A stretch of 11,611 bases of DNA from a virus. Taxonomy: Duplodnaviria; Heunggongvirae; Uroviricota; Caudoviricetes. Within the stretch, counting starts at the first letter, position 1. Every line of letters begins with the position of its first letter. The position numbers are program-made. Location: IMG/VR virus record IMGVR_UViG_2872185964_000001; one strand, given 5' to 3'. Shown here piece after piece: positions 1 through 6,000 of this stretch.

Positions 1-3000
1 TCATTTAACGTCCCCTGTGTTACCTTTCGTTTTATCACGAGCAATAAGCTGACTGGCAATAACCATCACCAGCGACAGCACCAGTAATATGGTTGCCAGC
101 GCGTTAACTTCCGGCGATACGCCGACTTTGACCATCGAATAAATTTTTAACGGCAGAATTTCATAACTTGGTCCGGTGACGAACGAAGAAACTACCACAT
201 CGTCCATCGACAGGGTAAAGCTTAACACCCAGCCCGCTGCCACCGCTGGCATTGCCAGTGGCAGTATGATTTTTCGCAGAATGGTAAATTCGCTGGCACC
301 GAGATCTTTCGCCGCTTCCAGCATCCGCACGTCAAAACCTTTCAGGCGCGAATACACCGTCACCACCACAAATGGCAGGCAGAAGGTGATATGCGAGAAC
401 AGCAGCGACCAGAAGCCAAGCTGAATACCCAGCAGCATAAACAGCACCAGCAGCGAAATTGCCATCACGATATCTGGTGACATCATTACCACAAACAGCA
501 TTCCGCTAACGAACGGCTTACCGCGAAAGCGATAACGGTACAGCGCAACTGCCGTCAGTGAACCGATAAGCGTAGCAAACGTCGCCGAAAACACCGCCAT
601 TGTTAGTGAATGCTGCGCTGCCTGTAACAGGCTGTCGTTGTTCATCAGCAGGCTATACCATTTGGTGGTAAAACCCTGCCAGTTGATGCCAAAGCGCGAG
701 CTGTTAAAGGAGTTCACAATCAAAATAATGATTGGGATATACAGGTACGCGTAGATAGCGGTCATAAAACCGCCGCGAAGCAGTCGACCGATCATTCGAG
801 TTCCACCTTCTTATTCATAAGGTGGAGCACTTTCAGGATTTTGAATTTATTCAATTTTTTCCTTTCTCCAAAATCTCTCCAAAACGTTTCCCCAAAACTA
901 GGCCACGCATTTTACAACACTTTTTTCCTGAGATGGTGACGGATATTCCATATGGTGTTTGTCAAATAACCAGCTTAACCCATTCCTGACCTCGAGTATC
1001 GTTATAGCGATCGGTGGTTGCCTGGACTTTATGTCCTAGTAATGTTTTTGTATCGATACCCTGTGCACGGTACAGCCGTTCTGATAGAGAGCGTTGTTCA
1101 TGAAATGTTGGCGGAGTTTTTCCTGCTGGTGGAATTATCCCAGCCAGATCCCGTGCTTTGGCAAAGTAGTCGCTCAGGTTGTCTTTACTCATCGGCTTCG
1201 GTTGTTTCTGGTGCCGACTATGGATTAGATATGGACTTAATATTCTGTCTCGGCACCCATCAATAACTTCTTTTAACGTTATCCCAATGGCATCACAGCG
1301 TAGTGTAAGCGGTAACGCCAGACGCATTCCGGTTTTTCCCTGGGTGATATGCAAGTGTTCGTTCCACACATCTGAAAAACGCATGTGGCAAATGTCATCA
1401 CGGCGCTGACCAGTAACAATCGCAAGAAGCATTGCGTTACGGATAAAGTGTTTTTCAGGCGTTGCATTGTAAATTTTTTGCCAGTCTTCCATGGTGAGCC
1501 TGGCTCTGGGTACTTTAGGGATCGGTTTACGGGTAGCCTCCGGAGGATTCCATCCAGGAGGAACTTCCCCTGCATGCTGTGCTTCTTTATAAATATCAAC
1601 CCATAATCCACGATTTACTCTCGCTGTGCTGACCATGTCTTTATCCAGCCACTCATCCAGTATTAATGCAAAGTCTCTTACTTCCAGTTCTTTCAATGGG
1701 TGGTTTCCCAGACGGGAAACCAGGTATGCAGCCATTCGAGTTTTTTCTTTGTGAGTTGTAGCTGCAATATCTCCATTTTTCAGTCGCGTGTCCTGTATTT
1801 TCAGATATCGATCAACCCATGCCTTTAATCTGATACCCCGACGTTTTGTTGCTGACGGACTTTCATCAATTTTGCGCATGAAATATTCAGCTTCTGCTGC
1901 AGCTATTCGCTGATTGGCTGTGGAAGCGATTTTTTCTGCCTTACCTTTGTCTGTTCCGAGTCCGTGAAATTTTCCAGTCACAGGATTTTTATACTGGTAG
2001 TAAACTCTGCCAGTTCTGCGATCAAACTTTTCGTAAAGACCGGCTACGTCAGTGCTGTTTTTTTGTGGCCTCGGTGACATGAGTTAAAATCTCCTTCAGT
2101 GCATCATCATCGCCAGTATGAATTTCCGGCGCAATTCCCGTTTCACCAGGCCCAACAAATACTGCTCGGCGATCTATCAGCCAACGCCCACGAATTTTTT
2201 GTGGTCTTGGAACGATGTATCCTAGTTTTCCGTATTTCACCAGGGTAGTGTTTGTTATTGGGAGACTGAACCGTTTTGGTTTCCACTCGTCGAGCGGGTA
2301 ATGCTGCCAACTTACTGATTTAGTGTATGATGGTGATTTTAAGGTGCTTGCGTGGTTTCCATTTCCATCAGATGTCCTTCCTGCTCCGCTACTGAAGGCG
2401 TGGTGCGTAACGGCAAAAGCACTGCCGGACATCAGCGCTATCTCTGCTCTCATTGCCGTAAAACATGGCAACTACAGTTCACTTACACCGCCTCTCAGCC
2501 CGGTACGCACCAGAAAATCATTGATATGGCCATGAATGGCGTCGGATGTCGCGCCAGTGCACGCATTATGGGCGTTGGCCTCAACACGGTTTTACGTCAC
2601 TTAAAAAACTCAGGCCGCAGTCGGTAACCTCGCGCATACAACCGGGCAGTGATGTGATTGTCTGCGCTGAAATGGACGAACAGTGGGGCTACGTCGGTGC
2701 TAAATCACGTCAGCGCTGGCTGTTTTACGCGTATGACAGGATACGGAGGACGGTTGCGGCGCACGTCTTCGGTGAACGCACTCTGGCCACACTGGAGCGT
2801 CTTCTGAGCCTGCTGTCGGCCTTTGAGGTCGTGGTATGGATGACGGATGGCTGGCCGCTGTATGAATCACGCCTGAAGGGAAAGCTGCACGTTATCAGCA
2901 AGCGTTACACTCAGCGCATTGAGCGACATAATCTGAATCTGAGACAACATCTGGCAAGGCTGGGACGGAAGTCACTGTCGTTCTCAAAATCGGTGGAGCT

Positions 3001-6000
3001 GCATGACAAGGTCATCGGGCATTATCTGAACATAAAACACTATCAGTGGATTTGCCCCTATATTTCCAGACATCTGTTATCACTTAACCCATTACAAGCC
3101 CGCTGCCGCAGATATTCCCGTGGCGAGCGATAACCCAGCGCACTATGCGGATGCCATTCGTTATAATGTTCGAACGCCTCTGCAAGGTTCTTTGCTGCCG
3201 TTAACCCGTCTGGTTTGGGCATGATACTGATGTAGTCACGCTTTATCGTTTTCACGAAGCTCTCTGCTATTCCGTTACTCTCCGGACTCCGCACCGCCGT
3301 GTTCTTCGGTTCAAGTCCCAACATCCGGGCGAACTGGCGTGTTTCATTAGCCCGGTAGCATGAACCATTATCCGTCAGCCACTCCACTGGAGACGACGGA
3401 AGATCGTTGCCGAAGCGGCGTTCCACCGCACCCAGCATGACGTCCTGTACTGTTTCACTGTTGAAGCCGCCGGTAGTCACCGCCCAGTGCAGTGCCTCAC
3501 GATCACAGCAGTCCAGCGCGAACGTGACACGCAGTCTCTCTCCGTTATCACAGCAGAACTCGAACCCGTCAGAGCACCATCGCTGATTGCTTTCTTTCAC
3601 GGCCACTCTGCCTGTATGTGCCCGTTTCGATGGCGGTACAGCAGGTTTTCGCTCAAGCAACAGCGCATTCTGGCGCATGATCCGGTAAACACGTTTGGCA
3701 TTGATCGCAGGCATACCATCAAGTTCTGCCTGTCTGCGAAGCAGCGCCCATACCCGACGATAACCATACGTGGGCAGCTCTCCGATAACATGGTGTATAC
3801 GGAGAAGCACATCCGTATCATCAGTGTGACGACTGCGGCGGCCATCCATCCAGTCATCGGTTCGTCTGAGAATGACGTGCAACTGCGCATGCGACACCCG
3901 GAGACAACGGCTGACTAAGCTTACTCCCCATCCCCGGGCAATAAGGGCGCGTGCGCTATCCACTTTTTTGCCCGTCCATATTCAACGGCTTCTTTGAGGA
4001 GTTCATTTTCCATCGTTTTCTTACCGAGCAGGCGCTGGAGTTCTTTAATCTGCTTCATGGCGGCAGCAAGTTCAGAGGCAGGAACAACCTGTTCTCCGGC
4101 GGCCACAGCAGTAAGACTTCCTTCCTGGTATTGCTTACGCCAGAGAAATAACTGGCTGGCTGCTACACCATGTTGCCGGGCAACGAGGGAGACCGTCATC
4201 CCCGGTTCAAAGCTCTGCTGAACAATTGCGATCTTTTCCTGTGTGGTACGCCGTCTGCGTTTCTCCGGCCCTAAGACATCAATCATCTGTACTCCAATGA
4301 CTAGTCTAAAAACTAGTATTAAGACTATCACTTATTTAAGTGATACTGGTTGTCTGGAGATTCAGGGGGCCAGTCTAATCAGTAAGTTGGAGTCATTACC
4401 CGCCGACTGCCTGGAATTTATCTGGTCGTTACCCGAAAATTCTGTTGACCTGATAGTCACGGACCCGCCGTACTTTAAAGTGAAGCCTGAGGGCTGGGAT
4501 AACCAGTGGAAGGGCGACGATGATTACCTGAAGTGGCTGGACCAGTGTCTGGCGCAGTTCTGGCGGGTGCTGAAACCTGCCGGAAGTCTTTACCTGTTCT
4601 GTGGTCATCGCCTGGCATCTGATATCGAAATCATGATGCGTGAACGCTTCAGTGTGCTGAACCATATTATCTGGGCGAAGCCGTCCGGACGCTGGAACGG
4701 ATGCAACAAGGAAAGCCTGCGGGCGTATTTCCCCGCCACAGAGCGCATTCTGTTCGCGGAACATTATCAGGGGCCGTATCGTCCGAAAGATGCCGGGTAT
4801 GCGGCGAAGGGCAGTGCACTGAAACAGCATGTGATGGCCCCGCTGATTTCTTACTTTCGTGATGCGCGAGCTGCCCTGGGGATAACGGCAAAACAGATTG
4901 CAGATGCCACAGGAAAGAAAAACATGGTGTCGCACTGGTTCAGTGCCAGTCAGTGGCAGTTGCCGAATGAAAGCGATTATCTGAAATTACAGGCGCTGTT
5001 TGCCCGGGTGGCAGAAGAGAAGCATCGGCGTGGTGAACTGGAAAAGCTCCACCACCAGCTGGTGGATACGTATACCTCACTGAACCGGCAGTATGCGGAG
5101 CTGCTGAGTGAATATAAACATCTGCGGCGGTATTTTGGCGTGACGGTGCAGGTGCCGTATACCGATGTGTGGACGCATAAACCGGTGCAGTTCTATCCCG
5201 GGAAACATCCGTGCGAAAAACCGGCAGAAATGCTGCAGCAGATAATCAGCGCTAGCAGTCGTCCGGGTGACCTGATTGCAGATTTTTTCATGGGGTCGGG
5301 TTCGACAGTGAAAGCGGCACTGGCGCTCGGGCGTCGTGCAATTGGCGTTGAGCTGGAGACTGAACGTTTTGAGCAGACGGTTCGGGAAGTACAGGATTTA
5401 GTCAGCCAGAACGGATGATATTGAAGAATTAATTACGAGTCGTTATTATGCGGCTCCCGGCCCTTTAGCTCAGTGGTGAGAGCGAGCGACTCATAATCGC
5501 CAGGTCGCTGGTTCAAATCCAGCAAGGGCCACCATCACATACCGCCATTAGCTCATCAGGAAAGAGCGCCAGCCTTCGAAGCTGGCTGCGCGGGGTTCAA
5601 GTCCCCGATGGCGGTCCATTATCTGCATCATGCGTTGTTAGCTCAGCCGGACAGAGCAATTGCCTTCTAAGCAATCGGTCACTGGTTCGAATCCAGTACA
5701 ACGCGCCACACTTATTTTCCCTGGCTCGCTTTTGCGGGCTTTTTTTTTAAATGTCTCACAATTCAGACGGTTGACTGTTGTCTGGTTTGCGGGGAGTTTG
5801 TTAAAAGAAACTGGCATGGTGAATCCCCCTGTGCGGAGGGGCAATCAGCGAGTAGGTATATGGGATAATCGCGGATTCAGGTGCTGGTACTGAATTCACC
5901 GGGAGGCACCCGGCACCATGCAATGGCACATAGCGCCACTCTCCAGCCCCTCTCCGGAGGGGCTTTCTTGTGGGCAAAAAAAGCCCGCGCTGGGAGACGC

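Follow-up and report, generated by a model that had tools for sequence, protein, structure and literature searches.

An IS1 copy without a target-site duplication joins the integrase-excisionase end of a Shigella prophage remnant to a late-region methyltransferase gene

The 11,611-nucleotide stretch of viral DNA analysed here (IMG/VR record IMGVR_UViG_2872185964_000001; hereafter the window) carries, beside the host gene potC, what is left of a lambdoid prophage, in which a copy of the insertion sequence (IS) IS1, itself interrupted by an IS2, directly joins a truncated excisionase gene (xis) to a truncated phage DNA methyltransferase gene. We consider, with a probability of about one half, that some 16.7 kb lying between codon 8 of xis and codon 14 of the methyltransferase gene were lost by IS1-mediated adjacent deletion. 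The window is 100% identical to NCBI accession CP026872.1, a Shigella chromosome, and was compared with an Escherichia coli prophage at the same site (FDAARGOS_536, NZ_CP033762; labelled L001) and with related loci labelled L002 to L010, among which CP026872.1 is L009.

An earlier note, made from the sequence alone, had remarked that the nine nucleotides on either side of the IS1 differ and that this copy is not a simple insertion. Both remarks hold. The left 9-mer, CGTCGAGCG, and the right one, CGCCGACTG, stand exactly at the edges of the element (Table 1), and each is native, single-copy sequence at a separate site of the intact prophage; therefore neither is a duplicated copy. No direct repeat of the IS1 flanks was found at any other offset or length, with only a trivial “CG” in common, and the 9-bp (8-11 bp) target duplication that a simple IS1 insertion leaves is thus lacking from this copy. 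In contrast, the plain insertions within the window, which serve as internal controls, do have their duplications (9 bp for the second IS1, here called IS1b, and 5 bp for IS2). The two 9-mers agree at 6 of 9 positions, a degree of agreement expected by chance in roughly 1% of cases according to a binomial estimate, and this resemblance could be due to chance or to the target preference of IS1. Besides, the IS1 inverted repeat reaches 3 nt into the flanks on each side (GCG at 2294-2296 and CGC at 4401-4403).

The element between the 9-mers is 2,104 bp long (2297-4400). The earlier note had taken it for IS1, which stands insofar as a complete IS1 of 768 bp (750 + 18 bp) is present; the 2.1 kb are not IS1 alone, as an intact IS2 is nested inside. 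The outer ends of IS1 are exact, with the left inverted repeat (IRL) GGTAATGCTGCCAACTTACTGAT running from 2297 and the right inverted repeat (IRR; reverse complement GGTAATGACTCCAACTTACTGAT) ending at 4400, the two agreeing at 21 of 23 positions. Once IS2 and one copy of ATCAG are removed, the sequence aligns over 768/768 positions with an uninterrupted iso-IS1 in L005, at 99.74% identity (2 mismatches), and it belongs to this iso-variant, being only about 91% identical to the second IS1 of the window. InsA has 91 aa and contains the Pfam domains Zn_ribbon_InsA and HTH_Tnp_IS1, DDE_Tnp_IS1 is matched over 131/131 positions, and the A6C frameshift site, AAAAAAC, lies at about 2603-2609. The missing duplication tells how this copy came to lie here and does not bear on its classification as IS1.

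The nested IS2 is bounded by the termini TGGATTTGCCCC and GGGGGCCAGTCTA, which were paired in an inverted-repeat search, and, outside these, by the perfectly duplicated 5-bp target ATCAG (3042-3046 and 4378-4382). Both of its NCBIfam transposase models are matched in full (TnpA 1-121/121, TnpB 1-301/301). Its insertion shifted the stop of InsB', adding 28 codons, while the 23-bp IRR of IS1 is still contiguous at 4378-4400 thanks to the ATCAG duplication, so that, judging from its ends, the 2.1-kb IS1::IS2 unit might be mobilisable in trans. As this outer IRR survives, the IS2 insertion may have come before or after the deletion.

A comparison with an intact potB/potC prophage, which had been proposed as a check, places both breakpoints. 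Window positions 1-2296 correspond to 19302-21597 of L001, the closest intact prophage at this site, and 4401-5964 correspond to 38350-39913, in unchanged order and orientation and with the breakpoints 16,752 bp apart. In L001, int and xis are followed by an exonuclease gene, dicB, a RelE/RelB pair, regulators, replication genes, hokD, rusA and Q, after which come the DNA methyltransferase gene, one tRNA-Ile gene, two tRNA-Arg genes and the SASA esterase gene. Everything from the exonuclease gene through the antiterminator gene Q is absent from the window, in agreement with the earlier reading that the early region is missing. L026, another relative sharing this int-xis, likewise has other genes after xis, namely exoVIII, cI, cII, O and Q, and none of the relatives found has int-xis naturally next to this methyltransferase gene. 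Neither of the findings named in advance as refuting, a matching 9-bp duplication or such a relative, turned up.

Both genes at the junction are cut within their first codons, as the note had described. The first 8 codons of xis are destroyed, which removes MSEQYLIT and leaves a frame starting LDEWKPK, and the first 14 codons of the methyltransferase gene are destroyed, which removes MLNTVKISSCELIN and leaves a frame starting ADCLEF. The integrase, called intact in the same note, is indeed a full-length open reading frame (ORF) with both Pfam domains, differing by 2 aa substitutions from the FDAARGOS_536 copy. A lambda-type integrase gene and a truncated excisionase gene lie beside an attachment site at the start of potC, and a comparison with the empty potB-potC site (L016) shows the two sequences parting about 22 nt ahead of the potC start codon. 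Of 5,426 complete E. coli genomes, 1,621 cover the potC-int-xis stretch (700-2296) to at least 80%.

The junction structure is fixed in one lineage and is no assembly artefact, since the junctions are identical across independent assemblies. Nine long related loci were examined, 8 of which carry the junctions of IS1 with xis, with IS2 and with the methyltransferase gene, and the assemblies sharing them include several complete chromosomes. The ninth locus, L005, ends before the xis-IS1 and IS1-IS2 junctions, and L007 gave no exact match for the IS2-IS1 junction. Among the sister assemblies, CP049281 comes from S. boydii 600657, serotype 4 (PMC7545283), and the exact integrase sequence is deposited as a Shigella dysenteriae protein. 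Neither outer junction was found in the 5,426 complete E. coli genomes, and the exact junction patterns had no match in the GTDB species representatives or the JGI metagenomes, two collections without this lineage. Apart from this genome, the exact integrase was encoded only on short contigs that break off at IS1, and contigs encoding PotC showed only unoccupied potB-potC sites, with no IS1 intermediates among them.

The locus qualifies only as a prophage remnant. None of the genes for immunity, replication, Q function, lysis or morphogenesis, nor attR, adjoins it, and IS600 and unrelated DNA follow nanS-p, the SASA esterase gene. With xis truncated, with immunity, replication and Q lost and with the right side cut by IS600, the gene content agrees with the view put forward in the note that this is probably a cryptic, non-inducible remnant, and the IS600 truncation inside nanS-p, which the note did not mention, strengthens that reading, as neither attR nor a late region adjoins.

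For the loss of the early region, the course of events may have been as follows. The iso-IS1 would first have inserted at one site, in either xis or the methyltransferase gene, and its transposase would then have used the IS1 ends to attack a second target in the same prophage by intramolecular replicative transposition, the intervening DNA being released as a circle and subsequently lost. Such a route would leave one complete IS1 with one old and one new flank, and hence no 9-bp direct repeat. IS2 would have entered the right end of IS1 cleanly, as an independent event, and an IS600-associated rearrangement would have removed everything past nanS-p. The marks that an adjacent deletion leaves are found here, namely an intact IS, a deletion endpoint at an IS terminus and no target duplication, and the complete IS1 termini coincide to the base with both breakpoints. 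For IS copies without target duplications, the literature blames either adjacent deletion or recombination between IS copies (PMC11708052). These are also the two simplest explanations that the earlier note had offered; they are the right alternatives, and the data do not separate them. Adjacent deletion is favoured because of parsimony, as it takes two events where recombination takes three. The transposase-driven route, the sequence in which the events took place and the derivation of both flanks from a single prophage are inferred.

Several observations weigh against adjacent deletion. No intermediate that still had the early region, together with a duplicated target around an IS1 in xis or in the methyltransferase gene, was found in the 5,426 E. 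coli genomes, the GTDB representatives or the JGI metagenomes, a search that did not cover Shigella genomes. The final structure is the same as the product of recombination between two directly repeated IS1 copies, and IS insertions number 229-348 per Shigella chromosome, with IS1 making up at least about half (PMC7373316), a density at which two copies within 17 kb are plausible. Ranking close behind is the possibility that xis and the methyltransferase gene were each hit independently by an iso-IS1, that both copies pointed the same way and had 9-bp duplications of their own, and that RecA-dependent recombination between them deleted 16.7 kb along with one IS1. The complete IS1 that survived would then stand between flanks derived from two different insertions, the left from one and the right from the other, as observed, and the very high density of IS1 in Shigella (PMC7373316) favours this course, as do the IS600 copies at this same locus, which appear to have recombined, inverting a segment. 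A 96%-identical IS1 copy in L005, intermediate between the iso (99.7%) and canonical (91%) types, could reflect exchange between IS1 variants. However, the IS1 at the junction is of pure iso-type with no chimeric pattern, which is uninformative if both parents were of that type, and none of the 5,426 E. coli genomes has either of the parental insertions.

The flanks might also stem from two different lambdoid prophages, joined by IS1 recombination through a chromosomal inversion or a large deletion, which we regard as unlikely. The locus has undergone large-scale rearrangement, its remnant being joined through IS600 to cheA-cheZ, and methyltransferase-tRNA modules are common among many lambdoid and Shiga toxin (Stx) prophages. 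In addition, the right flank is 96.5% identical overall to the L001 prophage at potC compared with 99.9% for the left flank (700-2296), and the methyltransferase 3' half and tRNA region is only about 95% identical to it, so that a single-prophage origin is not proven. Yet the parts follow one another and are oriented exactly as in a single prophage, and the 468 nt next to the junction (4401-4868) differ from the potC prophage at 1 position, the divergence being clustered further 3': nearly all of the 55 right-flank differences fall in 4869-5630, within the 3' half of the methyltransferase gene and the tRNA spacers. This stretch is a mosaic recombination patch of the kind typical of lambdoid phages. 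Less probable still is a single step in which a new IS1 became attached to two distant targets while the DNA between them was lost; such movement has been proposed for some rearrangements without target duplications, namely for IS5 and IS481 (PMC11708052), and would give a product of the same appearance, but it is undocumented for IS1, and 14 of 14 IS-associated deletions in the Long-Term Evolution Experiment arose by insertion followed by adjacent deletion (PMC11708052). As to a simple insertion whose duplication has decayed, the agreement of the 9-mers at two-thirds of their positions might speak for it, but with surrounding DNA conserved at 99.8-99.9%, three changes within 9 bp are not credible, and each 9-mer is native to its own site, with 16.7 kb between the two. 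An assembly artefact at a repeated IS sequence is contradicted by the identical junctions in independent assemblies, several complete chromosomes among them. The native 9-mers and the shared junctions rule out these last two explanations.

Table 1. Features of the window, with strand and supporting evidence
Feature	Position	Strand	Evidence or remarks
potC, spermidine/putrescine ABC permease, host gene	1..795	-	264-aa ORF; annotated PotC under E. coli match
Host/prophage boundary (attL side)	796..817		last stretch identical to unoccupied potB-potC site
Lambda-type tyrosine integrase gene (int), full length, 372 aa	962..2080	-	Pfam Arm-DNA-bind_1 and Phage_integrase
xis remnant, first 22 nt gone	2049..2296	-	aligned with 270-nt excisionase gene of L001
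Left flanking 9-mer CGTCGAGCG, native xis sequence	2288..2296		identical, same place in intact xis of L001
iso-IS1, first 750 bp	2297..3046	+	IRL 2297-2319, insA 2352-2627, insB' frame; Pfam InsA, DDE_Tnp_IS1; NCBIfam transpos_IS1
Intact IS2, 1,331 bp	3047..4377	-	orfA 3921-4286, orfB 3058-3963; inserted in IS1 right end
Open 373-aa fusion ORF, ATG start	4297..5418	+	35 codons of IS2/IS1 ends in frame with methyltransferase residues 15-end
iso-IS1, last 18 bp	4383..4400	+	with ATCAG copy 4378-4382 forms contiguous 23-bp IRR
Right flanking 9-mer CGCCGACTG, native methyltransferase-gene sequence	4401..4409		codons 14-17 of intact L001 gene
Phage N6/N4 DNA methyltransferase gene, first 41 nt gone	4401..5418	+	aligned to L001 38350-39358; Pfam PF01555
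Three phage tRNA genes: CAT (Met/Ile2 type), Arg-TCG, Arg-TCT	5459..5708	+	ARAGORN
nanS-p/SASA esterase gene, 3' end cut by IS600	6198..7565	+	Pfam DUF1737
IS600-like IS3-family element, 1,264 bp, ends prophage remnant	7566..8829	-	L009 self-alignment, flank inspection; NCBIfam transpos_IS3
Remnants of P4-like element (101-aa ORF, Bro-N protein, AlpA)	8830-10898		from ORF reading
Second IS1 (IS1A/R-like), runs off window	10899..11611	-	to 11666 in L009 (window numbering)

Domains were called by Pfam and NCBIfam scans of the window, and tRNA genes by ARAGORN. The retained part of the methyltransferase covers profile positions 1-219/221 of PF01555 (E = 3e-43) and has DPPY in its translation, so that a complete catalytic domain of the beta class of N6/N4 methyltransferases is predicted. 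It is read within the 373-aa fusion ORF. A deposited protein of exactly this sequence, “DNA methylase [Shigella boydii]”, occurs on 13 contigs, and 8 of the 9 assemblies examined share the ORF unchanged, so alike that a selection test has no power. The fusion ORF keeps the whole methyltransferase domain and adjoins three intact rare-codon tRNA genes, and both L001 and Stx2a phages have the same tRNA trio behind their methyltransferase gene. On this sequence evidence one could imagine that the remnant is a retained, IS-rewired orphan methyltransferase and tRNA module serving its Shigella host instead of inert debris, which we consider very unlikely; a promoter scan upstream of the fusion ORF revealed no promoter-like site.

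In sister assemblies nanS-p is a 462-aa SASA ORF, compared with a 1,857-nt gene in L001. In CP026872.1 only, single-G deletions at 6448 and 6891 relative to L006 split it into three ORFs, and these indels may be either real or homopolymer errors of long-read sequencing. In Stx2a-converting phages, the methyltransferase gene, the tRNA trio and nanS-p are about 94% identical to the window and collinear with it. These phages carry stx2AB in this module, whereas the window does not, and the alignment leaps from just before stx2A to just after stx2B, with about 5 bp between (5747-5751). Window positions 5709-6197, which include this point, can be described as an empty stx slot in the Shigella remnant.

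Beyond nanS-p, the IS600 that ends the remnant lacks a 3-bp duplication, and so does a second, inverted IS600 copy at 12953-14215 of L009. The pair brackets a P4-like segment comprising the 101-aa ORF, Bro-N, AlpA, the IS1b and an integrase fragment, the orientation of which in L006 and L009 is opposite to that in L002-L005, L007, L008 and L010; from the alignments, this looks like an IS600-mediated inversion polymorphism. The second IS1 is flanked by a perfect 9-bp duplication, AAGAAGTTC, at 10890-10898 and just past the window (to 11675; L009 coordinates minus 797). To the right of the window (L009 14262-20306), the remnant is joined via IS600 to cheA-cheW-tar-tap-cheR, of the cheA-cheZ operon. 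On the E. coli K-12 map, the che genes lie about 0.8 Mb from potABCD. The che junction points to a large inversion, more or less symmetrical with respect to the terminus, and the rest of the prophage and potB may be found at its other end. To the left of the window (L009 1-801), potD is represented by ORFs of 164 aa and 184 aa, compared with an intact 348-aa ORF in sister assemblies. Taken with the fact that potC and potD no longer adjoin potA and potB, this split suggests that the spermidine transporter is degraded in the CP026872.1 strain.

All the parts described are of known kinds (IS1, IS2, IS600, a potB/potC lambdoid prophage and a methyltransferase-tRNA-nanS module), and the sequence itself is already in GenBank. 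The locus is an ordinary example of insertion sequences eroding prophages in Shigella, in which four IS events reduced the prophage: an IS1-bounded deletion, a nested IS2, an IS600 truncation and an IS600-bounded inversion. It has little importance beyond annotation, is useful as a marker of one Shigella lineage and calls for caution with prophage-calling tools, as an intact int beside potC does not equal an inducible phage.

Compared with the E. coli potB/potC lambdoid prophage (FDAARGOS_536; ST131-type strains), the Shigella copy has the same attachment site, an int-xis region 99.9% identical and a common gene order (int, xis and, at the far end, the methyltransferase gene, three tRNA genes and the SASA esterase gene), but is without the 16.75-kb exo-to-Q stretch, has its esterase gene cut by IS600 and carries a mosaic methyltransferase 3' half. 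IS1, IS2 and IS600 have expanded in Shigella and are linked there to deletions and rearrangements (PMC7373316). Among the five expanded types considered in the IS-driven decay of Shigella genomes (IS1, IS2, IS4, IS600 and IS911), three occur in this 11.6-kb window, where their copies disrupt genes and bound rearrangements with no difference in kind from that decay (PMC7373316). The closest parallel to the proposed mechanism is provided by the classical IS1-promoted adjacent deletions in the gal region of E. coli K-12, which, as here, are of kilobase size, begin precisely at an IS terminus and leave an IS with complete ends and no 9-bp repeat; at the Shigella locus, in contrast, the route is deduced from the end product, and the IS1 carries an IS2 in its right end.

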